Assembly: GCF_988242995.1 (NCBI RefSeq)
Contig: NZ_OZ547043.1
Strand: one strand, 5' to 3'
DNA: 64,000 nucleotides
Part shown: positions 1-47,180 of the stretch, piece after piece
Layout: the number at the start of each line of letters is the position of its first letter
Numbering within the stretch: position 1 is the stretch's first letter
The notes under the pieces: generated by a model
Databases searched by the model: none
What the model saw: the letters and a program-made list of their open reading frames with translations, nothing else
What the model was told of the DNA's origin: nothing
Position numbers and translations under genes: made by a program

Positions 1-66
1 AATGGCTTTCACCGTTACTGATGGACAACCACAAAATGGACATGGTTTAACATTGTCATATCTCAT
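1..66 (-). CDS. ralR: Restriction-alleviation protein RalR/Lar, N-terminal 22 codons only (gene continues beyond window start)
   Basis: Minus-strand translation from ATG at 66 reads MRYDNVKPCPFCGCPSVTVKAI, matching the start of Rac RalR as I recall it; lies just downstream of recT as in K-12 Rac. Confidence 0.6.
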   Translation of the reverse strand, partial: MRYDNVKPCPFCGCPSVTVKAI

Positions 67-122
67 AACTTTTCTCATAAAAAATATTTCAAGTTGGCGG
101 TGCATTACACCGCCAGGCTGAA

Positions 123-932
123 TTATTCCTCTGAATTATCGATTACACTGTATTCCCCGGTTAATACAGAGGAATCTGCAGGATCGATTGTCAGTGGTTC
201 CTTTTCATCCATTGATACTGCACGCTGGATCTCAATTGATACGGGCAGATATTTGAACAGGCGACGAATAGCCGTTTTCTTTGCCATTTCTTCCCAGTGA
301 GTTACCCACGGCCCGTTATTACCAGCTTTACTCAGGCTGCGCACCAGCTCAATCTGTTTGCGCGTCATAACTTCAAACTGAGTACCTCCGTCTTTCAGTC
401 TTGCGACAGCATAGACGTGGGTAACCGGGGCATCTTCGTTTTCTCCCGGGCGGTGTATTAACTTTTCATCAAGGCCAAATTCGAAGCTAAACTCGTCACC
501 TTCACGGACAACACGGGCTGACAGGCTGGCGATTTGACCAGAACGGCGAGCCAGATCAATCATGCCGCGATAGCCAATGATTAGCTGAACGTTCTTTTTA
601 CCGCTCTTTTCGTTTTTATTACCAAAAGGCAGTAAATATGCATGACCGAGGGCGCTACCTGGCTCAAGTCCGAGCTGTGAACACTGTACGATCGCACTGA
701 CAAAACTCATAGTGTCACAGTTTCCTAACGCCGGAACTTTACGAATTTCTGTAGTGGCGATACGGATCATACGTTCAGCCGTCATATGGCGTGGAAGAGC
801 TGCTGCCAGTTGCTCTTTCATTGATGGCTGGTTAATAAAGCTAATCACGTCGCTATTTTTAACTGCTGCTGGTGCACGGTTTCCCTGAGTTTTTTGCAGA
901 TCGGCTTTTGCGATTGGTGGTTGCTTAGTCAT
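123..932 (-). CDS. recT: RecT single-strand annealing recombinase (Rac prophage)
   Basis: ORF 123..989; product from internal Met [21 protein letters not shown]... is 269 aa and matches K-12 RecT from memory. Confidence 0.95.
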
Positions 933-3525
933 TTGCATATTCCTTAGCCCAGCGGGGCAGTGATAATGTCTTAATAGCTGGCCATTCATCGGTATTCAGG
1001 CAGTCAGACAGGGTTCGCAGATTGCGGTGATATTCCTGTTGACCTGCCAGTTTTGCTTCTTCGCCCATCATGAAAATTTCAACCGGATAACGTCCGCATT
1101 CAATAGTTGTGCTGGCAACCAGAAAAACGAAAGTTGGCTGCACTCCAAACTGTGCTTCATAACCGTCACTGTAGAATGCATCCTGAACGTGATAGCGGTA
1201 GTCGTAATAAGCGGTTTTGAATCGTTGAATATCCGCCGTAGTTTTCACGTCCATGATCCAGTGAAATTCAGGGATAATTTTGTCCGGACGGCACCGACAC
1301 AAAATTCCTGTTTCAGGATCTTCCCAGTAAATTGATGATTCAGCGTGTCCGGCGCTTTCAACAAGCCATTGCCCCAGCGGCAAAGCCATAACGCTTTGAT
1401 ACATGAGTTCAATTTTCCGGCCTTCTTCCGCAGTGATAACCGTTTTTCCTGTGCTTGCGCATTCCATCAGAAACGCTTTCTCTTCTTCTTTTCCGGCGTT
1501 TGTACGGCGGTTAAATTCAGGTGCTACGATAAAGCGGTTACTGAATTCTTCCGGTTCAAGTACCCGGCAGTGGAAAGCAGTTCCTAAATCGAGCGTTTTT
1601 GTCTTTGTGGTGTCCACGGGGGCATTTTTACGCCACAAATATAGTGCCGGAGTATCAGCAATGTCATCGAGCTGAGACTTACTGATACCGGGACCCGCGT
1701 GGTAATTCTCATTCGAAATTCCGTAATAAATACCTGGCTCTATGTCTTCTACGATTACGGGATCTGCGACTTCGCCAGTTTCATCACTGCAATCGTGATG
1801 CGGATCGCTGCCAGCATTCTCATTGTGCGGATGTTCAGCGCCTTCCATTTCCTCCGGATCATTTTCCTTAGCTTCAACCTGACTCTCTTCATCGAATGTT
1901 TCCTGGTATGTTGCGTCGCCCATCACCGCACCACAGTCAGGGCAGTTATCCCCGCCAGTCTGGCCGCAGGCATTGCAGGCTATTTCCGGTTCCTGTTGCA
2001 CTACTGGCTCAGGTTGATTCATATCTGGGCTGGTTTTTTCCGTTTCTGGCTGGTTCTGGTACACACAATCGCGAGTCTGGATCCCCTTTACCCATTTCGG
2101 ATCGTTCGGGTCGCTAATTCCGTCAACAAATTCACCACGTGATGCAGCAAGCAATTTATCGGCATCGACAGGATTTTTTGATGGAATGTTTTTCCGGGCT
2201 TCATGGAGTTCTGCCCACAGTTCCTGATATTTCGCATCAACAGAATTTACCTGTGACTGAGCATCCAGCGGCTGCGTGTCCTGATGATGTTCAGTTGCGT
2301 CCGGTTCCATTGTTTCAGCCTCTCCCTGTTCAACTGCCGTTGTTCCAGATGGTTGCGGTTTTTCTTCATCATCCTGTTTTCCTTCTTCTGTTACTCGCTG
2401 CGGCATCGGGGCAGAGGAGCGACCGCAGGCAATATCCACGATTTCCGGATCAGGGTTGGCATGATCGGTTTCAGTCAGTACTTTGTTCAGATATTCAGTG
2501 ACGTGCGCGGGGATGACCTCGATCCCAATTGGTGCTTCTTTTACGGACGCAACCACGATGGCGCGGGAATAATCCAGCCCGCCAGGCATGGTGATGAATT
2601 TGTCGCGGAAAACAGAAAAGGGCGGTTTATTTTCAGCGATAATTTCCTCAATGCGTTTAGCGTGTGCCGGATGAAGGTTATAGATGTCCAGATCCATTGA
2701 ACGGGCCAGTACGCCAGTGGCTACGTCGCGCGCCAGTGACGTCAGATCGTGTACGAAACCTTCGCCGCGATCGGTGAGGTTTCCGCCGCCAGCATTAGCA
2801 CCGGAAGCCGTGCGAGTGATGTGTGAAACACGATTACCCTTCATCCACTCTTTTGTCAGCAGTCCTCGATCGGTGTAGTCAGCGTTCAGGTATGCTTCGA
2901 AAAAAGCAGTTATCAGTCCCAGGTTTGAATTACCAGGATTAGGGAAAACTTTGTCAGTGTCACGAACCAGTTTGTGGAGTTCGCGAATTTCCAGCGGGTC
3001 GAGCAGGCTGGTTTTGTGGGAAACAGCCAGGGCAGTAACAGCCGGTAGTTCTTCAGCCCGAGCAATGTGTAATGCCTGGAGTCCGTCGCGTGAAACGTGC
3101 GTTACCGGTTTTTCGCTGCCGTGTTGAGCAAGCCAACGAATGGGCAGTTCCTGGCCAGAAATTGGGAGTAGCATATTCTCCTCAATCTCAGTCATGTCTT
3201 CGCCGTTGACGTTGGTATTGCCTTGATAGTGAGCGTTGTCTGGTGCTGCTCCCGGTTTTAGTTCCCATGTCATGGAGTCTTTGCTGAGTTGATAGCGTTC
3301 ACTCCAGGTAAAATCGATCTCACCTTCAGTGGGCAGGTCATTAACGACAGGAAAATTCGTGGCAACAGCTTTAAAATAGCTGCTCAGTTTTTTACCTGAC
3401 TTAACGATCAGGTAGTCCAGAGTGGCACAGGTCGATTCAAAATCGTTGCTTGCCCACAGGACGACGTCAGGTTCACCGGATGATTTTTTCGCTTTCCGTA
3501 ACAGGAAGAGTGGTTTTGTGCTCAT
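925..3525 (-). CDS. recE: Exodeoxyribonuclease VIII (RecE)
   Basis: 866-aa [23 protein letters not shown]...; length and sequence match K-12 RecE; overlaps recT start as in Rac. Confidence 0.95.
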
Positions 3526-3624
3526 TGTTTTTTAACCTCAACTCAGATTAAAATTCGTTTTGTTCAGTGAATGATCTTGCCGGATACACACTGTTCATAG
3601 CCTGCGCCATACGCAGGCTATTTC

Positions 3625-4337
3625 TTGTGCACAGAAAACCCCCAGCTAGGCTGGGGGTTCCGGAAAGCTTTCAGCTTTGAGCCAGTTATTAAAACCCCTT
3701 TTGATTTGTTAAAACACTTTGCGGTCTGGCAACTGCAAGTGTCAAACAAGAAATCAAAAGGGGGTCCCAATGGGGAACGAAAAGAGCTTAGCGCACACCC
3801 GATGGAACTGTAAATATCACATAGTTTTTGCGCCAAAATACCGAAGACAGGTGTTCTACAGAGAGAAGCGTAGAGCAATAGGCAGTATTTTGAGAAAGCT
3901 GTGTGAGTGGAAAAGCGTACGGATTCTGGAAGCTGAATGCTGTGCAGATTATATCCATATGCTTGTGGAGATCCCGCCCAAAATGAGCGTATCCGGCTTT
4001 ATGGGATATCTGAAAGGGAAAAGCAGTCTGATGCTTTACGAGCAGTTTGGTGATTTGAAATTCAAATACAGGAACAGGGAGTTCTGGTGCAGAGGGTACT
4101 ACGTCGATACAGTGGGTAAGAACACGGCGAAGATACAGGATTACATAAAGCACCAGCTTGAAGAGGATAAAATGGGAGAGCAGTTATCGATTCCCTATCC
4201 GGGCAGCCCGTTTACGGGCCGTAAGTAACGAAGTTGGATGCAAATGTCAGATCGTGTGCGCCTGTTAGGGCGCGGCTGGTAAGAGAGCCTTATAGGCGCA
4301 TTTGAAAAACCTCCGGCTATGCCGGAGGATATTTATT
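3625..4337 (+). mobile_element. IS200-family insertion sequence (IS200/IS605 family, tnpA only), copy 1
   Basis: About 713 bp identical to 16039..16751; left-end perfect palindrome cccccagctaggctggggg; single Y1 transposase ORF; 3' end hairpin cctccggctatgccggagg. Confidence 0.9.
3770..4228 (+). CDS. tnpA: IS200 transposase TnpA (HUH/Y1 type)
   Basis: MGNEKSLAHTRWNCKYHIVFAPKYRRQVFY...; classic IS200 TnpA sequence with H-x-H motif (YIHMLVEIPP); SD aagggggt upstream. Confidence 0.9.
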   Translation: MGNEKSLAHTRWNCKYHIVFAPKYRRQVFYREKRRAIGSILRKLCEWKSVRILEAECCADYIHMLVEIPPKMSVSGFMGYLKGKSSLMLYEQFGDLKFKYRNREFWCRGYYVDTVGKNTAKIQDYIKHQLEEDKMGEQLSIPYPGSPFTGRK

Positions 4338-4613
4338 TCAGATTTCACCTTTTAATTTCATTGCAATTAGAGTTGCCAGAAATTCGGCTTTTTTTTCTGC
4401 GGGCAGATTCTTTCCGATATGCACCAGGCACATTTTTTTGACACCTTCATCAAGTGTTTTTACGTTGCCTGATGGACCATCGATATCAACCACAGTGAAT
4501 GGGGTTTCTTTATTTTCTGTTTTAATTACGTAGCCAATGCGCTTTCCTTCCAGATTCACCTCGTGAACAATGTCATCGGTAGTTACAACAGTGGCTTCAT
4601 AATTGGTAATCAT
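4338..4613 (-). CDS. racC: Rac prophage protein RacC
   Basis: 91-aa product MITNYEATVVTTDDIVHEVNLEGKRIGYV... matches K-12 RacC from memory; stop codon abuts IS200 right end. Confidence 0.8.
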   Translation of the reverse strand: MITNYEATVVTTDDIVHEVNLEGKRIGYVIKTENKETPFTVVDIDGPSGNVKTLDEGVKKMCLVHIGKNLPAEKKAEFLATLIAMKLKGEI

Positions 4614-4687
4614 GTTTTTCTCCTTAATTAAGGTTGAGCGAATACCTGCCATTTCTGGCATAAATTTAGTTTCGAATAGTCAATTAA

Positions 4688-4858
4688 TTAAAGTTCATGT
4701 GCCATCTGGTCTTTTTCGGCACAAGCTTCACTGCAATATTTTCTCGGTTCGTCTTTTGATAAAATCCCGTGCATGAAGTGAAGCATTCTTTCAATAGCTT
4801 TGCTTTCTTCAACGTCTTTTTTGCAAAGGTGGTAAGCACATTTTATTTTCTTAGTCAT
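4688..4858 (-). CDS. ydaE: Small Cys-rich protein YdaE (56 aa)
   Basis: Hand translation [56 protein letters not shown]; start overlaps kilR stop (TGATG); below ORF-track length cutoff. Confidence 0.7.
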   Translation of the reverse strand: MTKKIKCAYHLCKKDVEESKAIERMLHFMHGILSKDEPRKYCSEACAEKDQMAHEL

Positions 4859-5079
4859 CACCATGACTCCGCCTTTACAGGTAAACCATCACGACCGAGG
4901 AAGACTTTAATCATGCGGTCAGTAATGCATGTTTTTGTGGTCAGGTTACGAATATATAGTTTTCGCTTTTTAATATTGTTTGCCGAGGCAATATATGTCC
5001 GGCCTTCATGAAGAACATAATCGCCAGGAGTCACACACTGACGTGGTATTTCATCAGTTCCGAAGTGATGTGCAATCAT
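4858..5079 (-). CDS. kilR: Cell-division inhibitor KilR (FtsZ inhibitor)
   Basis: 73-aa product [38 protein letters not shown]... matches K-12 KilR. Confidence 0.85.
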
Positions 5080-5520
5080 AATTATCTCCATTTTTACAAA
5101 TGAACTTTGTTGATGCGGTGCCTGGTGCCTCCAGGTGACTGCAACCAGTTAACAATTACAGTCGGCTTTCCCACCCAAACCAATAAGGACTAACATGACT
5201 TTTAACTGTGCCACGTGCGCTTAGCCGCATTCACCGCATCACAAAATTCACTTTAAAAAGGGCGGACATCAGCCGAACTTCAAGAAAAAAACTGATGCCG
5301 CCAGGACTACACACAGCAATGTCGTTATTTACAACCGGAGGCGCACTCCCACCATTTAAATTTAACAGACAAGACCGACTCTTTATGGATATCGGAAATG
5401 CGCCTTCGTGTTGTGCCCGGTTTTATTTCACCACCTCCGGGCTTCGGTGGTCTCGGCTATACCCCTACAGCGAGAGCTTGTGTTAACATTTCAATACCCT
5501 TACAGTTGAGAGTTATTGAT

Positions 5521-6009
5521 ATGTTGGATGTATTTACTCCATTGTTGAAACTTTTTGCTAACGAGCCACTCGAAAGACTTATGTATACGATTATCATTTT
5601 TGGTCTCACTCTCTGGCTGATACCGAAAGAGTTTACTGCCGCATTCAATGCTTATACTGAAATACCTTGGCTCTTTCAGATTATCGTTTTTGCCTTTTCT
5701 TTCGTGGTCGCCATTTCCTTCTCAAGATTGCGAGCACATATTCAAAAGCATTATTCATTACTACCAGAGCAACGAGTATTGCTTCGTTTATCTGAGAAAG
5801 AAATCGCTGTATTTAAAGATTTCCTTAAAACAGGAAATCTTATTATCACTTCTCCTTGCCGTAACCCGGTTATGAAAAAATTAGAACGGAAGGGCATCAT
5901 TCAACATCAGAGTGATAGCGCAAACTGTTCTTATTATCTCGTCACCGAAAAATACTCCCATTTTATGAAGTTATTCTGGAACAGCAGGAGTAGACGTTTT
6001 AATCGTTAG
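5521..6009 (+). CDS. sieB: Superinfection exclusion protein B
   Basis: 162-aa product from MLDVFTPLLKLFANEPLERLMYTIIIFGLTLWLIP... matches K-12 SieB; membrane segments visible. Confidence 0.9.
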   Translation: MLDVFTPLLKLFANEPLERLMYTIIIFGLTLWLIPKEFTAAFNAYTEIPWLFQIIVFAFSFVVAISFSRLRAHIQKHYSLLPEQRVLLRLSEKEIAVFKDFLKTGNLIITSPCRNPVMKKLERKGIIQHQSDSANCSYYLVTEKYSHFMKLFWNSRSRRFNR

Positions 6010-6161
6010 CTTACTGTGTGCTTCTCCAACCATCGGCGCGCACCAGTTTCGGTTTTAAATGTTTTGCTTTTGGTATACGTCATGGCAGTGAACGTTCCAT
6101 CCTGGTTGGGGAACACGCCGCACACCAGGGATTCGTTGTTGCCGAGGTCGATTTTTTGCAT
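6006..6161 (-). CDS. ydaF: Rac prophage small protein YdaF (51 aa)
   Basis: Hand translation MQKIDLGNNESLVCGVFPNQDGTFTAMTYTKSKTFKTETGARRWLEKHTVS; 3' end overlaps sieB stop. Confidence 0.7.
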   Translation of the reverse strand: MQKIDLGNNESLVCGVFPNQDGTFTAMTYTKSKTFKTETGARRWLEKHTVS

Positions 6162-6171
6162 TTTGCGAATC

Positions 6172-6306
6172 TCACATCTTGTTGCTACGTATAGCGACTT
6201 CTGCCTGCCAGAGATCCCAGTCGTTGCTGCGTAAAGCCTGCACAGCCTGGTTGTAAGTGATACCGCAACAATCCATCAAATACTGAACTACTTCGTAATG
6301 CACCAT
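6172..6306 (-). CDS. ydaG: Rac prophage small protein YdaG (44 aa)
   Basis: Hand translation MVHYEVVQYLMDCCGITYNQAVQALRSNDWDLWQAEVAIRSNKM. Confidence 0.65.
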   Translation of the reverse strand: MVHYEVVQYLMDCCGITYNQAVQALRSNDWDLWQAEVAIRSNKM

Positions 6307-6475
6307 CTTATCTCTCCCCTTAACGCCGGGTGGCGGAACTAACTGCTGCACTGCAAAATTTGAATCCCGCCGTCATGTTCATACGCCTCGGGCTGGCTAC
6401 TTAACCCCTTACCACTGCCTGGTAACTCGAAGTATTGCCCGGCGTTCTGTGGGGCGGGGTGGGTGGTATGCTGGA

Positions 6476-6517
6476 ACTATAGGTAATGCCTAATTGATTG
6501 TCAATAGGCTATGCCTA
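6476..6517 (-). promoter_or_regulatory. Leftward early promoter (PL-like) with repressor operator half-sites
   Basis: Minus strand -35 TTGACA (6504..6499), 17-bp spacer, -10 TATAGT (6481..6476); palindrome TAGGCtatGCCTA at 6505..6517 and GCCTAAT half-site in the spacer. Confidence 0.55.
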
Positions 6518-6614
6518 ATGTTTTGAGCGTAACCTAATAGGTGATGGCGACAGCAGAAAGTGATGGGGGGGTTAAATAACGGAATCCAGGAGTTTTCCGT
6601 CAGACCATATAAGT

Positions 6615-7091
6615 TTAAGTTCCAGTTTTTGTGATGTTCTGGCTTTTCCGTTCAGATTCTAGAGCTTTCAGATACTTACCCACTTTCATTTCCATCGCTG
6701 CTATATAGGCGCGAACATCGTGGTCAACCCAATCTGGTTCTGTAGCATTTCCAGATAACAGGAAAGCTACAATCGCTCTTATTTCATCAGAGGCTGCTTG
6801 ATAAAGGTTGTTTATATCTAAAAGTTCACTTTTTGTATCTGAATTGGTGGGGGTTGGTATGGGGTATTCGTTAAGCCCCCAATGCTCTGGACCAACAACA
6901 TCAGAAAAGAAACGCCATAATTCTGGAAGTTTATCTTTACTTATAGAGCCTTTCTTAATCCAGTCATAAATTGATGGTGGTTGGACTTTGAAGTGGCGTG
7001 CGACCTCCGCCTTTGATTTGACGGATCCCGATGCGATTTTTTTGTTAATGGCCTGCTCTATCGCTCGGCCTAAGTCTTTACCACTAAGCAT
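6615..7091 (-). CDS. racR: Rac prophage repressor RacR
   Basis: 158-aa ORF MLSGKDLGRAIEQAINKKIASGS...; matches K-12 RacR; divergent from ydaS. Confidence 0.9.
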   Translation of the reverse strand: MLSGKDLGRAIEQAINKKIASGSVKSKAEVARHFKVQPPSIYDWIKKGSISKDKLPELWRFFSDVVGPEHWGLNEYPIPTPTNSDTKSELLDINNLYQAASDEIRAIVAFLLSGNATEPDWVDHDVRAYIAAMEMKVGKYLKALESERKSQNITKTGT

Positions 7092-7144
7092 TGCTTAATA
7101 TTCTCCTATGCGCATTACATTAGGCAATCCCTACCCTTACCGCA

Positions 7145-7188
7145 TTAGGCACAGCCTATTGACAATTGCGTTAGGCGTCGCCTAATAT
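7145..7188 (+). promoter_or_regulatory. Rightward early promoter (PR-like) with two operator palindromes
   Basis: Palindromes TTAGGCacaGCCTA (7145..7158) and TTAGGCgtcGCCTAA (7171..7185); -35 TTGACA 7159..7164 and -10 TAATAT 7183..7188 about 27 bp upstream of ydaS. Confidence 0.55.
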
Positions 7189-7214
7189 TTCTGTGTGTTT
7201 TTGGAGTTCATTCG

Positions 7215-7511
7215 ATGAAAAAAGAGAACTATTCATTCAAGCAAGCTTGTGCTGTTGTCGGTGGGCAATCAGCAATGGCTAGGCTTTTAGGTGTATCACC
7301 TCCAAGCGTAAATCAATGGATCAAAGGGGTACGTCAATTGCCTGCCGAGAGATGTCCAGCAATTGAACGTGCAACAAGAGGTGAGGTTCTGTGCGAAGAA
7401 CTTCGTCCTGATATTGACTGGTCATATTTACGACGTTCGGCATGTTGTTCGCAGAATATGTCAGTGAAGCAACTAAATGACAGTAACAAATCCTCATTTG
7501 ATCATACCTGA
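7215..7511 (+). CDS. ydaS: Cro-like HTH regulator YdaS
   Basis: 98-aa ORF MKKENYSFKQACAVVGGQSAMARLLGVSPPSVNQWIKG...; HTH motif; matches K-12 YdaS. Confidence 0.9.
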   Translation: MKKENYSFKQACAVVGGQSAMARLLGVSPPSVNQWIKGVRQLPAERCPAIERATRGEVLCEELRPDIDWSYLRRSACCSQNMSVKQLNDSNKSSFDHT

Positions 7512-7533
7512 AACATCAAGAGGCAAATGATTC

Positions 7534-7956
7534 ATGAAAATCAAGCATGAGCACATCGAATCAGTGTTGTTTGCCCTAGCAGCCGAAAAAGGGCAGGCAT
7601 GGGTAGCCAATGCAATTACTGAAGAATATCTGCGCCAGGGGGGCGGCGAATTGCCCCTGGTTCCAGGCAAGGACTGGAACAATCAGCAGAATATCTATCA
7701 CCGTTGGTTGAAAGGTGAAACGAAAACGCAAAGAGAAAAAATTCAGAAGCTGATCCCAGCAATTCTGGCAATCCTTCCGCGCGAGCTGCGTCACCGACTC
7801 TGCATCTTCGATACCCTGGAACGCCGTGCATTACTGGCGGCGCAGGAAGCGTTAAGTACGGCAATTGATGCGCATGATGATGCAGTCCAAGCCGTTTACC
7901 GGAAAGCGCATTTCAGCGGCGGCGGTTCTTCCGACGATTCTGTCATTGTTCATTAA
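7534..7956 (+). CDS. ydaT: Rac prophage protein YdaT
   Basis: 140-aa ORF matching K-12 YdaT from memory. Confidence 0.85.
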   Translation: MKIKHEHIESVLFALAAEKGQAWVANAITEEYLRQGGGELPLVPGKDWNNQQNIYHRWLKGETKTQREKIQKLIPAILAILPRELRHRLCIFDTLERRALLAAQEALSTAIDAHDDAVQAVYRKAHFSGGGSSDDSVIVH

Positions 7957-7968
7957 GCAAAAGTTTCC

Positions 7969-8826: not shown

Positions 8827-8832
8827 CTGACC

Positions 8833-9579: not shown

Positions 9580-9601
9580 TTTTTACCGGGAGAAAAATTT
9601 A

Positions 9602-10363: not shown

Positions 10364-10378
10364 TTGCCGGAGGCACCT

Positions 10379-10810: not shown

Positions 10811-10835
10811 CTACTAGGGGGGATAACAATAAAAT

Positions 10836-10855
10836 AAAGCCTCCTAGGAGGCTTT
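10836..10855. terminator. Bidirectional intrinsic terminator between convergent genes
   Basis: Perfect palindrome aaagcctcctaggaggcttt flanked by T-runs on both strands; overlaps MTase stop codon. Confidence 0.6.
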
Positions 10856-29911: not shown

Positions 29912-29914
29912 CAC

Positions 29915-36669: not shown

Positions 36670-37000
36670 TACGGAAGAATTTCACTGGTTACCAGAGGAT
36701 GGAATGAAAACAGAAAATAAACCATCGATAAAAACTGTAAGATTTGGCGATGGTTATGAGCAACGAAGTCCAAATGGACTTAATCATTCTCTGCGCGTTT
36801 TCACCTGTGATTTCAAAGTTGAGGCGAATGAACGTGATTCATTTGAAAAATTTTTAGCCCGGCATGAAGGCTATAAATCTTTTTTTTGGCGCCCGCCGGG
36901 TATTAACAGAAAAATCAGAGTGGTGTGTCGAACGTGGTCAGCGACAGAACATATCACCTATACCGATTTTTCGTGTCAGTTTGACGAAGTGGTGATCTGA
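36662..37000 (+). CDS. M: Minor tail protein M
   Basis: [16 protein letters not shown]...SFFWRPPG... homologous to lambda M. Confidence 0.85.
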
Positions 37001-37698: not shown

Positions 37699-37702
37699 TC
37701 CC

Positions 37703-38985: not shown

Positions 38986-39045
38986 TGAAAAACGTTTTAT
39001 GTGAAACCGCCTCCGGGCGGTTTTATCGTTTATGGAGCATGACGA

Positions 39046-42000
39046 ATGGGTAAAGGCAGCAGTAAGGGGCATACCCCGCGCGAAGCGAAGGACAACCTGA
39101 AGTCCACGCAGCTGCTGAGTGTGATCGATGCCATCAGCGAAGGGCCGGTTGAAGGTCCGGTGGATGGATTAAAAAGCGTGCTGCTGAACAGTACGCCGGT
39201 GCTGGACAGTGAGGGGAATACCAATATATCCGGCGTCACGGTGGTGTTCCGGGCCGGTGAGCAGGAGCAGACTCCGCCGGAGGGATTTGAATCCTCCGGT
39301 TCCGAGACGGTGCTGGGTACGGAAGTGAAATATGACACGCCGATCACCCGCACCATCACGTCGGCAAACATCGACCGTCTGCGCTTTACCTTCGGTGTGC
39401 AGGCACTGGTGGAAACCACCTCAAAGGGGGACAGGAATCCATCGGAAGTCCGCCTGCTGGTTCAGATACAACGTAACGGTGGCTGGGTGACGGAAAAAGA
39501 CATCACCATTAAGGGTAAAACCACCTCGCAGTATCTGGCCTCAGTGGTGGTGGATAACCTGCCGCCGCGCCCGTTTAATATCCGGATGCGCAGGATGACG
39601 CCGGACAGCACCACAGACCAGCTGCAGAACAAAACGCTCTGGTCGTCATACACCGAAATCATCGATGTGAAACAGTGCTACCCGAACACGGCACTGGTCG
39701 GCGTGCAGGTGGACTCGGAGCAGTTCGGCAGCCAGCAGGTGAGCCGTAATTATCATCTGCGCGGGCGTATTCTGCAGGTGCCGTCGAACTATAACCCGCA
39801 GACGCGGCAATACAGCGGTATCTGGGACGGGACGTTTAAACCGGCATACAGCAACAACATGGCCTGGTGTCTGTGGGATATGCTGACCCATCCGCGCTAC
39901 GGCATGGGGAAGCGTCTCGGTGCGGCGGATGTGGACAAATGGGCGCTGTATGTCATCGGCCAGAATTGCGACCAGTCGGTGCCGGATGGCTTTGGTGGCA
40001 CGGAGCCTCGCATCACCTGTAATGCCTGGCTGACCACGCAGCGCAAGGCGTGGGATGTGCTCAGTGATTTCTGCTCGGCGATGCGCTGTATGCCGGTATG
40101 GAACGGGCAGACGCTGACGTTCGTGCAGGACCGGCCATCGGATAAGGTGTGGACCTATAACCGCAGTAATGTGGTGATGCCGGATGATGGCGCGCCGTTC
40201 CGCTACAGCTTCAGCGCCCTGAAGGACCGTCATAATGCCGTTGAGGTGAACTGGATTGACCCGAATAACGGCTGGGAGACGGCGACAGAGCTTGTGGAGG
40301 ACACGCAGGCCATTGCCCGTTACGGTCGTAACGTCACGAAGATGGATGCCTTTGGCTGTACCAGCCGGGGGCAGGCACACCGCGCCGGGCTGTGGCTGAT
40401 TAAAACAGAACTGCTGGAAACGCAGACCGTGGATTTCAGCGTCGGCGCAGAAGGGCTTCGCCATGTACCGGGTGATGTTATTGAAATCTGCGATGATGAC
40501 TATGCGGGGATCAGCATTGGCGGGCGCGTGCTGGCGGTGAACAGCCAGACCCGGACGCTGACGCTCGACCGTGAAATCACGCTGCCATCCTCCGGTACCA
40601 CGCTGATAAGCCTGGTTGACGGGCAGGGGAGTCCGGTCAGCGTGGAGGTTCAGTCCGTCACCGACGGCGTGAAGGTGAAAGTGAGTCGGGTTCCTGACGG
40701 CGTTGCCGGATACAGCGTGTGGGGGCTGAAGCTGCCGACGCTGCGCCAGCGCCTGTTCCGCTGTGTGAGTATCCGTGAGAACGATGACGGCACGTATGCC
40801 ATCACTGCCGTGCAGCATGTACCGGAAAAAGAAGCCATCGTGGATAACGGGGCGCACTTTGACGGCGACCAGAGCGGCACGGTGAATGGTGTCACGCCGC
40901 CAGCGGTGCAGCACCTGACCGCCGAAGTCACCGCAGACAGCGGGGAATACCAGGTGCTGGCGCGCTGGGATACGCCGAAGGTGGTGAAGGGCGTGAGCTT
41001 TATGCTTCGCCTGACCGTGGCAGCGGATGACGGCAGTGAGCGGCTGGTCAGCACGGCCCGGACGACGGAAACCACATACCGCTTCAGGCAGCTGGCTCTG
41101 GGAAATTACAGTCTGACAGTCCGGGCGGTAAATGCGTGGGGGCAGCAGGGCGATCCGGCGTCGGTATCGTTCCGGATTGCCGCACCGGCAGCGCCATCGC
41201 GGATTGAGCTGACGCCGGGCTATTTTCAGATAACCGCCACGCCGCATCTTGCGGTTTATGATCCGACGGTACAGTTTGAGTTCTGGTTCTCGGAAAATCG
41301 GATTGCGGATATCAGGCAGGTTGAAACCAGCGCGCGTTATCTTGGCACGGCGCTGTACTGGATAGCCGCCAGTATCAATATCAAACCGGGCCATGATTAT
41401 TATTTTTACGTTCGCAGTGTGAACACCGTCGGCAAATCGACATTCGTGGAGGCTGTCGGTCGGGCGAGCGATGATGCGGAAGGTTACCTGGATTTTTTCA
41501 AAGGCAAGATAACCGAATCTCATCTCGGCAAGGAGTTGCTGGAAAAAGTCGACCTGACGGAGGATAACGCCAGCAGACTGGATGAGTTTTCGAAAGAGTG
41601 GAAGGATGCCAACGATAAATGGAATGCCATGTGGGCTGTCAAAATTGAGCAGACCAAAGACGGCAAACATTATGTCGCGGGTATTGGCCTCAGCATGGAG
41701 GATACAGAGGAAGGCAAACTGAGTCAGTTTCTGGTTGCCGCCAATCGTATCGCGTTTATTGACCCGGCAAACGGGAATGAAACGCCGATGTTTGTGGCGC
41801 AGGGCAATCAGATATTCATGAACGAAGTGTTCCTGAAATATCTGACGGCTCCCACCATTACCAGCGGCGGTAATCCTCCGGCATTTTCCCTGACACCGGA
41901 CGGGCGGCTGACGGCGAAAAATGCCGATATCAGCGGTAACGTGAATGCGAACTCCGGGACGCTCAACAACGTCACGATTAACGAGAACTGCCGGGTTCTG

Positions 42001-42441
42001 GGAAAACTGTCCGCGAACCAGATTGAAGGCGATCTCGTTAAAACAGTGGGCAAAGCTTTCCCCCGTGACTCCCGGGCACCGGAGCGGTGGCCATCAGGGA
42101 CCATTACCGTCAGGGTTTATGACGATCAGCCGTTTGACCGGCAAATTGTTATTCCGGCGGTGGCATTCAGTGGCGCTAAGCATGAGAGAGAGCATACTGA
42201 TATTTACTCCTCATGCCGTCTGATAGTGCGGAAAAACGGTGCTGAAATTTATAACCGTACCGCGCTGGATAATACGCTGATTTACAGTGGCGTTATTGAT
42301 ATGCCTGCCGGTCACGGTCACATGACACTGGAGTTTTCGGTGTCAGCATGGCTGGTAAATGGCTGGTATCCCACAGCAAGTATCAGCGATTTGCTGGTTG
42401 TTGTGATGAAGAAAGCCACTGCAGGCATCACGATTAGCTGA
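39046..42441 (+). CDS. J: Central tail fibre / host specificity protein J
   Basis: 1131-aa [40 protein letters not shown]... matches lambda J. Confidence 0.95.
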
Positions 42442-42508
42442 ATTTTATAACCCAGATACGGGCACCAGAAATGGTGCCTTTTTTATTGCAGAAAAGCGAG
42501 AGGTAATT

Positions 42509-43108
42509 ATGCGTAAATTATGTGCTGTTATTCTGTCCGCAGTAGTCTGGCTGGTTGCCGCTGGTACGCCAGCGAGCGCAGCAGAGCATCAGTCCACACT
42601 AAGCGCCGGGTATCTTCAGACCCATACTGATATGCCAGGCAGTGATGACCTGAAGGGCATTAACGTGAAATACCGTTATGAATTTACGGACATGCTGGGG
42701 CTGGTGACGTCATTCAGTTATGCCAATGCCAAAGATGAGCAAAGAACGCATTACAGCGATACCCGCTGGCATGAAGATTCAGTGCGTAACCGCTGGTTCA
42801 GCATGATGGCGGGGCCATCTGTACGCGTGAATGAATGGTTCAGTGCTTATGCGATGGCAGGTGTGGCTTACAGCCGTGTTTCGACGTTCTCCGGGGATTA
42901 TCTCCGCGTAACTGACAACAAGGGGAAAACGCACGATGTGCTGACCGGAAGTGATGACGATCGCCACAGCAACACGTCTCTGGCGTGGGGAGCTGGCGTG
43001 CAGTTTAACCCGACCGAATCCGTGGCCATTGATATTGCTTATGAAGGCTCCGGCAGTGGCGACTGGCGCACTGACGGTTTCATCGTGGGTGTCGGTTATA
43101 AGTTCTGA
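42509..43108 (+). CDS. lom: Lom-family outer membrane protein (Ail/Lom)
   Basis: 199-aa ORF with signal peptide; near-identical to lambda Lom from memory. Confidence 0.9.
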   Translation: MRKLCAVILSAVVWLVAAGTPASAAEHQSTLSAGYLQTHTDMPGSDDLKGINVKYRYEFTDMLGLVTSFSYANAKDEQRTHYSDTRWHEDSVRNRWFSMMAGPSVRVNEWFSAYAMAGVAYSRVSTFSGDYLRVTDNKGKTHDVLTGSDDDRHSNTSLAWGAGVQFNPTESVAIDIAYEGSGSGDWRTDGFIVGVGYKF

Positions 43109-43166: not shown

Positions 43167-45530
43167 GTGGATATGGCAGCAGTAAAAATCTCAGGTGTGC
43201 TGAAAGATGGTGCGGGAAAACCAATACAGAACTGCACTATTCAACTGAAGGCAAAGCGTAACAGCACCACGGTACTGGTGAACACGGTGGCCTCTGAAAA
43301 TCCGGATGAAGCCGGGCGTTACAGCATGGATGTTGAGTATGGTCAGTACAGCGTCACCCTGCTGGTTGAAGGTTTTCCGCCTTCACATGCCGGGACCATT
43401 ACCGTCTATGAAGGTTCCAGACCAGGTACGCTGAATGATTTTCTCGGTGCCATGACGGAAGATGATGTCATGCCGGAGGCATTGCGTCGTTTTGAGGCAA
43501 TGGTGGAAGAAGCGGCACGCAACGCCGAAGCCGCCTCTCAGAGCGCAGCAGCGGCAAAGAAATCCGAAACTGCAGCGGCATCATCGAAGAACGCGGCGAA
43601 AACCTCAGAAACAAATGCAGCTAACAGCGCACAGGCGGCAGCGTCCTCGCAGACTGCATCGGCAAACTCCGCGACAGCAGCCAAAAAATCAGAAACCAAC
43701 GCGAAAAATAGCGAGACAGCCGCAAAGACGAGCGAAACCAACGCAAAGTCCAGCCAGACGGCAGCGAAAACAAGCGAAACGAATGCCAAAGCCAGTGAAA
43801 CTGCGGCAAAAAACAGCCAGGTTGCAGCAGCCCAAAGCGAGAGCGCGGCAGCCGGTTCTGCGACTTCAGCAGCTGGATCAGCAACTGCTGCGGCTAACAG
43901 CCAGAAAGCTGCGAAGACGAGTGAAACTAACGCAAAGTCCAGCCAGACGGCAGCGAAGACCAGCGAAACGAATGCCAAAGCCAGCGAAACTGCGGCGAAA
44001 AACAGTCAGGATGCAGCAGCCCAAAGCGAGAGTGCTGCAGCTGGTTCTGCCACTGCATCAGCCAACAGTCAAAAAGCAGCAAAAACCAGTGAAACCAATG
44101 CAAAGACAAGCGAGACTGCAGCGGCGAACTCGGCGAAAGCATCCGCTGCAAGCCAGACCGCTGCAAAAGCAAGTGAAGACGCAGCCAGAGAGTATGCAAG
44201 CCAGGCAGCAGATCCGTATAAATATGTCTTACAGCCGCTGCCTGATGTGTGGATACCGTTTAACGATTCACTGGATATGATTACGGGCTTTTCGCCATCA
44301 TATAAAAAGATTGTTATTGGTGACGACGAAATAACGATGCCTGGCGACAAGATTGTTAAGTTTAAACGTGCATCGAAAGCAACCTATATTAACAAATCTG
44401 GTGTGTTGACAGAGGCTGCCATTGATGAGCCACGATTTGAACGTGATGGCCTGCTTATTGAGGGGCAAAGAACTAATCTTCTGCTTAATTCAACAAATCC
44501 ATCTAAATGGAATAAGTCAGGCAATCTGGAACTCACAGAAATATCCACGGATTCTTTTAATTTTACTTATGGGAGATTTACTGTAAAAGATACTCTTATT
44601 GGTCAGACAAGTGCTATTAATATCGTAACGATTTCTGGCAGTAAAGGGTTTGATGTCACAGGTGATGAAAAATATGTGACCATTTCATGCCGTGTAAGAA
44701 GTGATGTTGAAAATATAAGGTGTCGTTTAAGATTTGAACACCATGATGGTTATACTTACACTTTTTTGGGAGATGCTTACCTCAATTTATCAACACTTGT
44801 AATTGATAAAACTGGTACTGCTGCAGACCGTATTATTGCAAAGGCTGTAAAAGATGAGGTTACTGGTTGGATTTTCTATCAGGCTACAATTAATGCACTA
44901 GATACAGAGAGCATGATTGGTGCGATGGTTCAATACGCTCCTGTAAAAGGTTCAGGTACAGCATCTGGAGACTATCTGGATATCGCAACTCCACAAGTGG
45001 AAGGTGGATCAAGTGCTTCGTCATTTATTGTAACTGATATAACTGCAAGCACTCGCGCAAGCGATATGGTGACAGTCCCAATCAAGAATAACCTTTATAA
45101 TCTTCCTTTTACGGTTCTTTGTGAGGTACATAAGAACTGGTATAAAACGCCAAATGCAGCACCGCGTGTTTTTGATACCGGCGGTCATCAAACCGGAGCG
45201 GCTATTATTCTTGGCTTCGGTCGTTCAACAGATTACGACGGATTTCCTTATTGTGATATAGGTTTGGCTAACAGACGGGTAAACGAAAACGCATCGCTTG
45301 AAAAAATGGTTATGGGGATGCGTGTAAAGTCAGATCAGTCTACGTGCTCAGTAAGTAACGGGCGTATATCCAGCGAAAAGAAAGCCACATGGTCCTATAT
45401 TCAGAACTCCGCAATTATCCGTATTGGAGGCCAGACTACAGCCGGGTTGCGTCATTTATTTGGTCATGTCAGGAATTTCAGAATATGGCACAAGGCATTG
45501 ACTGATGCTCAGATGGGGGAGTCAATCTAA
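43167..45530 (+). CDS. stf: Side tail fibre protein (Stf-like) with Ala/Ser/Thr-rich repeats and distinct C-terminal domain
   Basis: N-terminus MAAVKISGVLKDGAGKPIQNCTIQLKAKRNSTT... as lambda Stf; C-terminal third is visibly AT-rich and ends with a motif I read as LamG-like (RNFRIWHKALTDAQ). Confidence 0.85.
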   Translation: MDMAAVKISGVLKDGAGKPIQNCTIQLKAKRNSTTVLVNTVASENPDEAGRYSMDVEYGQYSVTLLVEGFPPSHAGTITVYEGSRPGTLNDFLGAMTEDDVMPEALRRFEAMVEEAARNAEAASQSAAAAKKSETAAASSKNAAKTSETNAANSAQAAASSQTASANSATAAKKSETNAKNSETAAKTSETNAKSSQTAAKTSETNAKASETAAKNSQVAAAQSESAAAGSATSAAGSATAAANSQKAAKTSETNAKSSQTAAKTSETNAKASETAAKNSQDAAAQSESAAAGSATASANSQKAAKTSETNAKTSETAAANSAKASAASQTAAKASEDAAREYASQAADPYKYVLQPLPDVWIPFNDSLDMITGFSPSYKKIVIGDDEITMPGDKIVKFKRASKATYINKSGVLTEAAIDEPRFERDGLLIEGQRTNLLLNSTNPSKWNKSGNLELTEISTDSFNFTYGRFTVKDTLIGQTSAINIVTISGSKGFDVTGDEKYVTISCRVRSDVENIRCRLRFEHHDGYTYTFLGDAYLNLSTLVIDKTGTAADRIIAKAVKDEVTGWIFYQATINALDTESMIGAMVQYAPVKGSGTASGDYLDIATPQVEGGSSASSFIVTDITASTRASDMVTVPIKNNLYNLPFTVLCEVHKNWYKTPNAAPRVFDTGGHQTGAAIILGFGRSTDYDGFPYCDIGLANRRVNENASLEKMVMGMRVKSDQSTCSVSNGRISSEKKATWSYIQNSAIIRIGGQTTAGLRHLFGHVRNFRIWHKALTDAQMGESI
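43722..44100 (+). repeat. Imperfect tandem duplication (about 189-bp unit, 2 copies) inside stf
   Basis: Units beginning near 43722 and 43911 encode KTSETNAKSSQTAAKTSETNAKASETAAKNSQ.AAAQSESAAAGSAT; boundaries approximate. Confidence 0.7.
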
Positions 45531-45811
45531 TGAAAGATTTAACACTCAAATTTGCAGACAGGGCCGACTTTTCGGCCTTTATGGATAGCATTGGCTATTA
45601 TGATGACGAGTCGATGCAGGATGATATTCTTATTGACGTGATAGGTAACGTGTACAAAGAAACCGGAGAACTGACTGAAGATGGCGAACCGGTATGTGTT
45701 AAGGAAGACGGATATTTTGTAAACGTGCGCATCATTAATGATGCAAAAAAATCGTCAATATTCGATGAATACGCGGTTGTAGTTGAACATCAACTTCGTG
45801 GCTGGATGTGA
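45530..45811 (+). CDS. Hypothetical protein (93 aa) downstream of stf
   Basis: ORF with start overlapping stf stop; acidic. Confidence 0.45.
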   Translation: MKDLTLKFADRADFSAFMDSIGYYDDESMQDDILIDVIGNVYKETGELTEDGEPVCVKEDGYFVNVRIINDAKKSSIFDEYAVVVEHQLRGWM

Positions 45812-45820: not shown

Positions 45821-46525
45821 ATGGCTACATCGACAGTAATTCCAGGAGACATCACCACGTTAAAGGGAGATGTCAGTAAAGCCAAGGAAGATATTTCCTC
45901 AATTAACGGAAAAGTATCAACGCTTCAGGCTGATATGACCAGTGCAAAGCAGGATATCAGCACCAGATACACAAAAACTGAAGTTGATAATAAGCTGAAA
46001 AACAAACTGGAAGTGAACGCTCTGGAAAGCGGTCGTTATGGTGGAGATTTTTACCCGTTGACTGGCCGTGAAGCGTTTTATTTGTGGGGATTGGGCACGA
46101 CTACAGCGGCGGCAAACCTTTATCTTAATCCTGACCCCGCAATTTCGTCTGTGCTGCGGTCAACATCGTCTATCCGCTATAAACATTCAGTAGAGACAAT
46201 AGATTCAGAGCACGCCGAACTCATTTTCAGGATGCGCCCTGTGTGGTACAGGTCACAATGCGAAAATGACAGGCGTGACTGGGGATTCTACGGATTGATT
46301 GCCGAGGAAGTAGGAGAAATTGCCCCTCAGTTTGTACACTGGCGACCAGCTAACGAAGATGATGCACCGGAAGCTATTTCCAGCAATGGCCTTGTTGCCG
46401 AAGGTGTAATGTACGAACGTCTGGTTGTTCCACTGATTCACCATATCCAGAAGCTGACTGAAAGAGTTGATGAACTTGAGTCAGAATTAAAGTTGTTATC
46501 CGTTTCCCGAAGCGATATCGGATAA
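45821..46525 (+). CDS. Tail-fibre-associated protein with coiled-coil N-terminus and possible intramolecular-chaperone-like C-terminus
   Basis: 234-aa ORF; N-terminal heptad-like repeats; C-terminal region SSIRYKHSVETID...WGFYGLIAEEV reminiscent of tail-spike chaperone domains (from memory, unverified). Confidence 0.45.
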   Translation: MATSTVIPGDITTLKGDVSKAKEDISSINGKVSTLQADMTSAKQDISTRYTKTEVDNKLKNKLEVNALESGRYGGDFYPLTGREAFYLWGLGTTTAAANLYLNPDPAISSVLRSTSSIRYKHSVETIDSEHAELIFRMRPVWYRSQCENDRRDWGFYGLIAEEVGEIAPQFVHWRPANEDDAPEAISSNGLVAEGVMYERLVVPLIHHIQKLTERVDELESELKLLSVSRSDIG

Positions 46526-46535
46526 AGGAGGAGTA

Positions 46536-46829
46536 ATGGATATAACACCTTTCCTTCATGCGCTTTGTGCTGTGGCTGCGCAGCTACTGATTGGTCTTTT
46601 TACCGGGAACTGGGCTTACGGGGCGATAGCCGGTTGTACGTTCTTCATTGCGCGTGAACACACCCAGGCAGAATATCGCTGGATCGAAATGTTCGGGCAT
46701 GGCAAGCGAATGAATATGCCGTGGTGGGGCGGTTTTGATCCGCGCGCGTGGGATGTGGCAAGCCTGATGGATTTTGCTGTGCCGGTGGTGGCGTGTCTGC
46801 TGGTCTGGCTGTTGGTTAATCGTGGGTGA
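46536..46829 (+). CDS. Hypothetical membrane protein (97 aa)
   Basis: ORF with AGGAGG SD; two hydrophobic segments. Confidence 0.45.
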   Translation: MDITPFLHALCAVAAQLLIGLFTGNWAYGAIAGCTFFIAREHTQAEYRWIEMFGHGKRMNMPWWGGFDPRAWDVASLMDFAVPVVACLLVWLLVNRG

Positions 46830-46839
46830 AAAAAGGTGA

Positions 46840-46968
46840 GCTGTATATGCAACGGAGGAAGAAACCCCGTTGCTGGAAGCCTGGAAAAAGTATCGGATGC
46901 TGCTGAACCGTGTTGATACATCAACTGCACCTGATATTGAGTGGCCTACGAACCCTGTCAGGGAGTAA
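46840..46968 (+). pseudogene. tfa: Remnant of tail fibre assembly gene tfa (C-terminal about 40 codons only)
   Basis: Translation ...[37 protein letters not shown] matches the conserved C-terminus of lambda Tfa; no upstream ORF in frame. Confidence 0.75.
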
Positions 46969-47180
46969 TCATTGGGATTATGCCGCAGAAACGTTGTATG
47001 CAATAACGTTCTGCGGTTGGCTGATGCACTTTCGAGAGTGCATGTATTGAATTATTTCCAGCTATTATCGATTTTACGTATTTTTTGCATGAGAGAATTT
47101 GTACCTCCTCCCAACAACGACCTTCCATGACTTTCCGGACTTCTGTGGGCCAGCGGACGATGCTGCCCTCGGATGTTGTG

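Follow-up and report, generated by a model that had tools for sequence, protein, structure and literature searches.

Among 638 strains, 69% have an occupied Rac locus, and the Rac prophage of E. coli K-12 has been described as incomplete (PMC6379469). In K-12 MG1655 it is a cryptic 23-kb remnant (NC_000913.3, 1411899-1434958). KingRac, an active 46.8-kb Rac-like lambdoid phage, integrates at ttcA and replaces K-12 Rac (Frazao et al. 2019, PNAS; PMC6731689), and it is weakly inducible (PMC6731689). Here we have analysed a stretch of 64,000 nucleotides from contig NZ_OZ547043.1 (the window). Our analyses indicate, with a probability of about 0.9, that a lambdoid prophage of the Rac family, ~53 kb long, has inserted into the 5′ end of ttcA, and that positions 1-51017 hold its right-hand ~51 kb. 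KingRac, the one precedent for induction and virion production, demonstrates that a full-length relative of Rac can be active. It is of comparable size and shares the ttcA locus; the two are likened by description, the KingRac sequence existing only as SRA reads.

A full-length prophage at the Rac locus is an already documented, ordinary form that is common in sequenced E. coli. At least 80% of one half of the prophage is found in 39 complete genomes and of the other half in 177. The same gene order from intR to sitA, at 97-99.9% DNA identity, is seen in LST200A (NZ_CP110858) and strain 1428 (NZ_CP023366), and the same identity and order hold for records scored 'intact' by PHASTER, including vB_EcoS-683R6 and -666R9 (ON4705xx-ON4706xx). 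These full-length relatives lack the two IS200C insertions of the window copy and differ in the nin-region cargo and in the distal tail-fibre genes. Records labelled 'phage' that match are either predicted by PHASTER or include host flanks, and within the phage collection no virion-derived sequence joined this head type to a Rac early region.

Gene content was established by searching the window with the annotated proteins of relatives, those of LST200A included (tblastn). Each of the 55 genes annotated in close relatives gave one match here, full-length and without a change of frame. The order given by the sequence-only reading (ralR-recT-recE-racC-ydaE-kilR-sieB-ydaF-ydaG-racR-ydaS-ydaT-ydaU-ydaV, then lysis, trkG, packaging, head and tail genes, lom and stf) is present throughout. 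The early genes share 99.8-100% amino acid identity with annotated relatives, and the Rac-specific recET, racC, kilR, sieB, racR, ydaS, ydaT, ydaU and ydaV follow the K-12 order at 99-99.8% DNA identity, with 99.8% across the left recombination arm (1-3525). Features of the left arm, immunity and replication regions are as follows (percentages in this and later lists are amino acid identities).

66-1, minus strand: 5′ end of ralR, first 22 codons only, the rest outside the window (100% to LST200A)
123-932, minus strand: recT (100% to LST200A)
925-3525, minus strand: recE (99.8% to LST200A)
4338-4613, minus strand: racC (100%)
4688-4858, minus strand: ydaE (100%)
4858-5079, minus strand: kilR (100%)
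5521-6009, plus strand: sieB (100%; Pfam SieB match)
6006-6161, minus strand: ydaF (100%)
6172-6306, minus strand: ydaG (100%)
6615-7091, minus strand: racR repressor (tblastn)
7215-7511: ydaS, Cro-like (tblastn/Pfam)
7534-7956: ydaT (tblastn/Pfam)
7969-8826: ydaU, DUF1376 (tblastn/Pfam)
8833-9579: ydaV, IstB/DnaC-like ATPase (tblastn/Pfam)
9602-10810, plus strand: full-length DUF1627 protein and DUF977 protein (tblastn, Pfam)

The leftward early operon runs kilR, ydaE, racC, recE, recT and ralR, followed by xis and int outside the window. In the immunity region racR faces ydaS and ydaT, and ydaU and ydaV are the replication genes. RacR gave no Pfam match and has no recognisable S24 autocleavage domain. 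Beyond the replication genes lies a low-GC (35%) cargo block (10844-14038), which also contains a PADLOC HEC-04 match (1.5e-34). Next comes a nin-like stretch (14504-15932) whose last gene is the Q-type antiterminator, then the lysis genes and further cargo.

10844-11884, minus strand: C5 cytosine DNA methyltransferase (Pfam; PADLOC MTase_II, 1e-96)
11908-13737, minus strand: OLD-family ABC-ATPase/Toprim nuclease (Pfam; PADLOC ATPase-Toprim; PDB 6p74, OLD family)
about 13883-14038, plus strand: hok/gef toxin (Pfam)
14504-15103, plus strand: DUF1367 protein (Pfam, tblastn)
15103-15393, plus strand: YbcO nuclease family (Pfam, tblastn)
15390-15932, plus strand: Q-type antiterminator, DUF1133 (Pfam, tblastn)
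16865-17434, plus strand: 189-aa membrane protein of unassigned function (tblastn)
17782-18123, plus strand: holin (tblastn, profile matches)
18127-18603, plus strand: endolysin like lambda R (94% to lambda)
18600-19064, plus strand: Rz with embedded Rz1 (Rz 93% to lambda)
19202-20659, plus strand: trkG potassium transporter, cargo (100%; same position as in K-12 Rac)
20797-21588, plus strand: ParB_N-domain protein (domain match)
21581-22513, plus strand: TAGT/GREB1-like glycosyltransferase (domain match)
22491-22700, plus strand: small HTH protein (domain match)

The cargo occupies classic moron positions: the methyltransferase, OLD nuclease and hok genes lie in the nin region, the gene for the 189-aa membrane protein separates Q from the holin, trkG follows the lysis genes, and sitABCD is in the b-region beside attR. 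The methyltransferase and OLD-type nuclease pair, the hok/gef gene and the ParB_N and glycosyltransferase pair had been overlooked when the DNA was first read. A terminator-like hairpin (about 16014-16039, -16.1 kcal/mol) lies downstream of the Q-like gene, and the lysis, packaging, head and tail genes are all on the plus strand downstream of both.

22704-23798, plus strand: TerS (Pfam/PHROGs, tblastn)
23779-25080, plus strand: TerL (Pfam/PHROGs, tblastn)
25083-26489, plus strand: DUF4055 portal (Pfam/PHROGs; 69% to HK639)
26473-27585, plus strand: Mu-F-like head morphogenesis protein (50% to HK639)
27690-28454, plus strand: DUF6651 scaffold-like protein (65% to HK639)
28553-29692, plus strand: major capsid protein with P22 coat fold (75% to HK639)
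29735-29911, plus strand: 58-aa protein (tblastn)
29915-30310, plus strand: Ad1 (Pfam/PHROGs)
30310-30693, plus strand: Hc1 (Pfam/PHROGs)
30694-31074, plus strand: Neck1 (Pfam/PHROGs)
31071-31463, plus strand: tail terminator (Pfam/PHROGs)
31490-32452, plus strand: tube (Pfam/PHROGs)
32501-32962, plus strand: chaperone G (Pfam/PHROGs)
33436-36669, plus strand: tape measure (Pfam/PHROGs)
36662-37000, plus strand: M (42% to lambda)
37000-37698, plus strand: L (93% to lambda)
37703-38446, plus strand: K (98% to lambda)
38344-38985, plus strand: I (81% to lambda)
39046-42441, plus strand: J (89% to lambda)
42509-43108, plus strand: lom (45% to lambda)
43173-45530, plus strand: stf (N-terminus 61% to lambda; 189-nt tandem repeat at 43668-44045)
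45530-45811, plus strand: 93-aa ORF
45821-46525, plus strand: 234-aa fibre tip with S74 chaperone domain (domain match)
46536-46829, plus strand: 97-aa ORF
46849-46965, plus strand: tfa 3′ remnant
46982-47132, plus strand: DNA like the lambda b-region (lambda comparison)

Every structural role from TerS through the tape measure has Pfam and PHROGs matches. The G/GT frameshift signal is intact, with a slippery AAAAAAG at 32950-32956 and the -1 frame open to 33270. Frameshifts in essential structural genes had been a concern; by tblastn against the proteins of relatives, none of these genes carries one. Comparison with strain 1428 gave a pN/pS of 0.12 across 19 late genes. All essential modules are present and no essential gene is frameshifted or truncated. 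The earlier description of a largely intact lambdoid genome holds once the right boundary is moved, sit is counted as cargo and both IS200C insertions are added.

The prophage is a genuine mosaic, as had been proposed. It has the same overall module order as lambda, and aligning it to lambda (J02459) showed DNA homology only in R-Rz (910 bp) and the L-to-J tail-tip block (5,033 bp), at 91-93% identity, with 92.7% over 36978-41978. This module order and these high-homology patches, which would permit recombination with lambda, place it among the lambdoid prophages. R and Rz are 93-94% and L, K, I and J 81-98% identical to lambda at the amino acid level. The sequence-only reading had called the whole tail tip lambda-like; this stands for L, K, I and J, whereas M, lom and the stf N-terminus are distant relatives only. 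Its view that the head and packaging genes are not lambda-like was borne out, with no similarity to lambda detected in the terminase, head, connector, tube and chaperone genes, nor in the early genes (exo/bet/gam, N, cI, cro, cII, O, P, Q). The portal-to-capsid segment instead resembles that of HK639 (NC_016158), a viable lambdoid phage and the nearest cultured one with this head type. Its portal, MuF, scaffold-like, major capsid and small-protein block is collinear at 50-75% amino acid identity. In contrast, its tail-tip genes are just 31-35% identical, and its genes for terminase, Ad1/Hc1, tube, early functions and lysis either show no relationship or fall below detection. The terminase of the window copy resembles neither phage.

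RacR would maintain lysogeny, and upon derepression the Q-like protein would let RNA polymerase cross the hairpin and transcribe the late genes. TerL, which is of Terminase_6 type, is predicted to package by headful, and excision at the 26-bp core would be the work of IntR and XisR. Judged from sequence, the odds that this copy produces phage are roughly even. The genome is not free of mobile elements, and its two IS200C insertions matter for the question of functional intactness. Both of these 711-bp insertions were missed by the sequence-only reading.

3627-4337, plus strand: IS200C copy 1, 711 bp, tnpA at 3770-4228 (RefSeq name IS200C; Rfam STnc490 at 3637-3760)
16041-16751, plus strand: IS200C copy 2, 711 bp, 100% identical to copy 1 and in the same orientation (Rfam STnc490 at 16051-16174)

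Copy 1 separates recE from racC and is immediately preceded, on its 5′ side, by a 10-bp hairpin (-16.7 kcal/mol) and a T-rich tract. Copy 2 directly follows the hairpin that comes after the Q-like gene, and the lysis and late genes lie beyond it. Both sites are thus intergenic, in the left-operon and late-operon leader regions. Across 5,426 complete E. coli genomes, IS200C occupied neither site; the copy 1 site is empty in a relative (L001), and contigs with an identical Q protein lack copy 2. The two copies are recent, strain-specific insertions by this sequence comparison, and their absence from these genomes and from near-clonal contigs suggests that they are very recent. Since they bracket racC through Q as 12.4-kb direct repeats, homologous recombination between them could delete the immunity-replication-Q block. 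Copy 1 could also have a polar effect within the left operon, on the expression of recET, xis and int. Copy 2 follows the putative tR′ hairpin and precedes the first late gene; it adds hairpins of its own, one of them flagged as terminator-like (16724-16742), and could have a polar effect on transcription of the late genes.

The strongest alternative, to which we give somewhat less than an even chance, is that the prophage is structurally complete but grounded, with one or both IS200C copies, in the late-operon leader and the left operon, blocking expression so that no phage is made. This copy would then be one step along the decay path that gave K-12 Rac. The regulatory positions of the insertions, the strong hairpins in IS200 ends, the direct repeats around racC through Q and the weak inducibility of KingRac itself all speak for it. 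However, no ORF is broken, the insertions are very recent with no further accumulated decay, and in lambda Q-modified polymerase generally passes intrinsic terminators. Conversely, it is possible but doubtful that an active phage that packages by headful survives in this copy or in its near-clones without the IS. Such a phage would carry sitABCD, the methyltransferase/OLD-nuclease defence pair and the ParB_N-glycosyltransferase pair from one E. coli strain to another by integrating as a lysogen at ttcA, where, like KingRac, it would replace Rac remnants already resident. If so, Rac-type phages would be a vehicle spreading sitABCD, a recognised virulence and fitness factor.

The right end had been placed at 47180, which proved wrong. 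The 26-bp attR core, TTGTTCAGGTTGTATTGTTCTTTCTT, is at 50992-51017, identical to the K-12 core and beside the ttcC′ fragment and uspF, and the flank continues with uspF, ompN, ydbK and onward.

47181-50630, minus strand: sitDCBA Mn/Fe ABC transporter operon (99.6-100% to relatives' proteins), between the tail-fibre genes and attR
50839-51017, no strand assigned: right arm common to K-12 Rac, with the attR core at the ttcC′ fragment (K-12 alignment, att core match)

Because the attR core lies to their right, the sit genes are cargo within the prophage. That the prophage instead stops near 47180, with sitABCD an independent genomic island beside it, is improbable: the operon is on the opposite strand, has no phage function and is missing from K-12 Rac, but the att core and ~150 bp of the K-12 right arm lie beyond it, the tfa remnant and lambda b-region DNA precede it, the order fibre-sit-attR-uspF recurs in relatives including ON032529, and the sit region holds no second att site, integrase or flanking IS. 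We consider it very improbable that the identical IS200C pair, or the mosaic itself, is an assembly artefact, since despite the 100% identity of the copies and the vacancy of both sites in every other genome, both junctions are precise 711-bp insertions in otherwise colinear sequence, both targets are alike (a hairpin, then TT(C/G)TT) and the flanks differ from near-clonal contigs by 0-3 mismatches.

As the sequence-only reading had noted, the integrase end is outside the window, with xis, int and attL to the left of position 1. In relatives L001 and L007 attL and ttcA are present. L007 is near-clonal (0 and 2 mismatches over 3.6 and 9.9 kb; 100% and 99.98% identity), and in near-clonal contigs with an identical RecE, intR and xisR are intact. 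Both L007 and LST200A have intact intR, xisR, rcbA, ralR and ttcA, and in L007 xisR and intR lie next to ttcA. Taken together, the analysis places sitABCD inside the prophage boundary and makes an early step of prophage decay visible in the recent insertions that form 12.4-kb direct repeats. Its value is modest, and current understanding is unchanged, as full-length Rac-locus prophages are common and one active example is published.

K-12 Rac occupies the same locus with the same 26-bp att core, and aligns with the window in five collinear blocks of 99-99.9% identity. The high-identity stretches are ralR-recT-recE, racC through ydaV, the Rz 3′ end-trkG-ynaK, and ydaY-ynaA. K-12 lacks window positions 10052-18619, 21051-32610 and 34371-42750 (8.6, 11.6 and 8.4 kb), in agreement with the earlier claim that it has lost the nin-to-lysis segment and most structural genes. 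The edges are at 10051/10052 and, inside Rz, 18619/18620 for the first deletion, and at 21050/21051 on the left of the second. K-12 ydaW is a truncated form of the full-length DUF1627 protein, ynaK is the 5′ remnant of the ParB_N-domain gene, and the ydaY and ynaA/tmpR fragments map to 32611-34370. The full-length copy accounts for the K-12 pseudogenes and orphan genes ydaW, rzpR, ynaK, ydaY, ynaA/tmpR and lomR as junction fragments of the three deletions, and is thus a clean template for the origin of K-12 Rac. Since three deletions separate five collinear blocks, K-12 Rac is a deleted derivative of a full-length Rac-type prophage. The two also differ in that K-12 has an IS5 in lomR (lom) and no IS200C, while the window copy has two IS200C; and K-12 carries another stf C-terminus with tfaR, pinR and ynaE, where the window copy has the S74 fibre tip and sitABCD. 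K-12 Rac is the same element after three internal deletions and an IS5 insertion in lom, with a different distal tail-fibre and right-end segment.

Our analysis has shown that the Rac-family prophage carries a full set of uninterrupted late genes. Translated coding sequences annotated in two E. coli relatives with full-length prophages at the Rac locus, LST200A (NZ_CP110858) and strain 1428 (NZ_CP023366), were compared with the window by tblastn. All 55 of 55 genes from recT to sitA were found once, full-length and in a single frame, mostly at 97-100% identity and in the order given by the sequence-only reading, whose gene list is correct, with zero frameshifts in structural genes. Every expected structural role was assigned by Pfam and PHROGs, namely TerS (full-length phrog_51), TerL (Terminase_6N/6C), a DUF4055 portal, a Mu-F-like head morphogenesis protein, a DUF6651 scaffold-like protein, a P22-coat-fold capsid protein, Ad1, Hc1, Neck1, tail terminator, tube, assembly chaperone and tape measure. 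The tail chaperone keeps its programmed -1 frameshift layout (slippery AAAAAAG at 32950-32956; -1 frame open to 33270). The pN/pS ratio of 19 late genes against strain 1428 was 0.12, as would be expected if purifying selection acts on them. Because a 69-aa ORF upstream also matches a TerS PHROG, it was suspected that an in-frame stop at 22698-22700 cuts TerS in two; this was ruled out, since the 364-aa protein spans phrog_51 end to end and both genes are conserved separately in all relatives. The stf gene contains a tandem repeat of 189 nt (63 codons) at 43668-44045, whose two copies are 83% identical. The fibre tip (45821-46525; 234 aa, with an S74 intramolecular-chaperone domain) stands in place of strain 1428's 346-aa fibre protein, matches that family only in its first ~32 residues, and is a putative local host-range cassette swap.

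Comparison with K-12, whose Rac is a deleted remnant, was made by blastn of the window against MG1655. The main blocks are collinear, at 99.0-99.9% identity:

Window blocks matched in K-12 Rac (blastn)
1-3626, ralR through recE
4323-10051, racC through ydaW
18620-21050, Rz 3′ end, trkG and ynaK
32611-34370, ydaY and ynaA/tmpR

Weaker K-12 matches (89-94%) were seen for lom and the 5′ end of stf, and the chromosomal match restarts at window 50839. The gaps between collinear blocks indicate that K-12 lacks window 10052-18619, 21051-32610 and 34371-42750, and on this alignment K-12 ydaW, rzpR, ynaK, ydaY, ynaA and lomR are junction fragments of three deletions. The earlier statement that K-12 Rac lacks the nin-to-lysis segment and most structural genes is thereby borne out and made precise.

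By sequence comparison, the window is E. coli chromosome at the K-12 Rac locus. In the records that match best, annotation of LST200A on the left side runs abgAB … dbpA, ttcA, intR, xisR, rcbA, ralR, recT, recE …, and that of strain 1428 on the right runs … stf, sitDCBA, uspF, ompN, nifJ/ydbK, ydbJ, hslJ, ldhA, ydbH. The prophage had previously been drawn as ending at 47180, but this is the stf/sitD border. The right end is the 26-bp Rac core TTGTTCAGGTTGTATTGTTCTTTCTT, common to K-12 attL and attR, which lies at 50992-51017 and is preceded by ~150 bp of K-12 Rac right arm. The sitDCBA genes (47181-50630) have attR on one side and, on the other, lambda b-region-like DNA with the 3′ remnant of tfa (46849-47132), which is the classic cargo position; in 2009, Fisher and colleagues reportedly placed Shigella sit beside phage genes. 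The integrase end is outside the window, as the sequence-only reading stated, since the window begins within ralR and holds only its first 22 codons. In LST200A and in all three lineages with identical RecE, none of ralR, rcbA, xisR, ttcA and the gene for a 411-aa integrase is disrupted, and the left end is therefore likely intact in this strain. The attL core of LST200A is 1,962 bp left of the position aligning with window base 1; taking this attL position, the whole element would be ~52,980 bp, including 1,422 bp of IS200C. Adjoining the prophage, the chromosomal porin gene ompN (51795-52910) shares 82% aa identity with the strain 1428 allele, while its neighbours share 98-100%, and Rfam places a MicC sRNA match at 53136-53256.

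IS200C, a 711-bp element encoding a 152-aa IS200-type TnpA (RefSeq name IS200C) and containing the Rfam STnc490 motif, is present twice in the same orientation with 100% identity, at 3627-4337 and 16041-16751. Repeated 169-aa and 121-aa ORFs and a 12.4-kb-spaced repeat were considered as a racC-kilR duplication; this was rejected, as alignment shows them to be the IS200C copies. Judged from the empty sites of LST200A, the insertions are precise and lack target duplication. A strong, GC-rich 10-bp hairpin (-16.7 kcal/mol for copy 1, -16.1 for copy 2), followed by TT(C/G)TT (window 3590-3626 and 16005-16040), precedes each copy by a few bases, and IS200C matches in other genomes run 20-50 bp into similar flanks, which hints at a hairpin-adjacent target preference. 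Copy 1 is between recE and racC. Copy 2 falls in what is presumed to be the late-operon leader: the holin lies downstream of it, and on its 5′ side it closely follows a terminator-like hairpin that comes after the gene for a Q-type antiterminator (15390-15932). IS200C was found at either site in 0 of 5,426 complete genomes, and was absent there from contigs encoding an identical RecE or Q-like protein. One of these assemblies (L007) is near-clonal, with 0 mismatches to the window over 3,626 nt and 2 over 9,911 nt, indicating that the insertions are very recent. No ORF is broken by IS200C, and lambda biology would predict that polymerase modified by Q transcribes across the copies. As direct repeats, they could permit deletion of the 12.4-kb racC-to-Q block.

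Several accessory genes accompany the structural modules. Directly 5′ of the terminase genes (20797-22513), a 263-aa ParB_N-domain protein, of whose gene K-12 ynaK is a 5′ remnant, overlaps a TAGT/GREB1-like "TET-associated glycosyltransferase" matching Pfam PF20691 (3e-35) and phrog_842. In its ParB_N part the protein is similar to the N-terminal end of ParB-methyltransferase fusions (PADLOC PDLC03229, phrog_498). The prophage contains no TET/JBP gene, and for the glycosyltransferase PDB has no homologue; the two genes may form a module that glycosylates phage DNA or protein. A minus-strand pair in the nin region (10844-13737, 35% GC) encodes a C5 cytosine methyltransferase and a 609-aa OLD-family ABC-ATPase/Toprim nuclease, with matches to PADLOC HEC-04 (1.5e-34) and ATPase-Toprim_I-B and to PDB 6p74. 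At that spot ON470595 carries an FtsH-like protein and S8 peptidase, and strain 700462 carries DUF262 and an AAA ATPase; this varying cargo suggests a defence-gene hotspot. Adjoining the pair is a Hok/Gef-family toxin gene (13883-14038); no sok-type RNA reached the Rfam gathering threshold. A 189-aa predicted membrane protein (16865-17434; phrog_11870), with no match in Pfam or PADLOC, is encoded downstream of the Q-like gene and its terminator hairpin and upstream of the holin. In Stx phages, toxin genes occupy the position between Q and holin. For the RacR repressor (6615-7091) Pfam gives no match, and it lacks an autocleavage domain of the S24 (LexA/CI) type, so SOS induction, if any, would not be possible by lambda's route.

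The window was compared with lambda by tblastn of all lambda proteins and blastn of lambda DNA. Lambda R and Rz are 94% and 93% identical (aa) to window proteins, and L, K, I and J are 93%, 98%, 81% and 89% identical, with 92.7% DNA identity across 5 kb. In contrast, M (42%), H (28%), lom (45%) and the stf N-terminus (61%) are distant, so that the tail tip, previously described as lambda-like from M to stf, is so only for L, K, I and J. Neither search found a window match for lambda head, packaging, connector, tube, chaperone or early proteins, in agreement with the view that head and packaging are not lambda-like. The nearest cultured phage by capsid protein is HK639 (75% aa); the window shares with it a collinear block of portal, MuF, scaffold-like, MCP and small-protein genes at 50-75% aa, whereas the terminases of the two are unrelated. 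At least three ancestries are therefore represented in the late region, which upholds the mosaicism claimed earlier.

DNA near-identical to both window halves was found by megablast in thousands of genomes, with at least 80% of window 1-25000 in 39 complete genomes and of 25001-50000 in 177. The packaging-to-tail-chaperone block (20700-33400) is 99.4-99.5% identical to PHASTER-"intact" prophages deposited by Lopez-Diaz et al. 2022 (bioRxiv 10.1101/2022.06.29.498070). Among matching "phage" records there was no virion-derived genome of this type, all being prophage predictions or carrying host flanks. ON032529.1 ("Salmonella phage SPF_0923, complete genome") includes E. coli uspF, ompN and ydbK, and ON470595.1 (vB_EcoS-683R6) includes E. 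coli abgT through ttcA; both are prophage-region excerpts, not virion genomes.

In conclusion, the reading of a near-complete Rac-like prophage is correct, with its boundary corrected and two IS insertions added, and the biology is already known. The Rac locus is filled in 69% of 638 genomes, and Rac is cited as incomplete in K-12 while intact elsewhere (Ramisetty and Sudhakari 2019, PMC6379469). Frazao et al. 2019 (PMC6731689) described KingRac, a Rac-like prophage of 46.8 kb at ttcA, which produces particles, responds weakly to mitomycin induction and took the place of K-12 Rac in the mouse gut. Together with the PHASTER records, these reports already document elements of this kind, how complete they are compared with K-12, and that they may be active.
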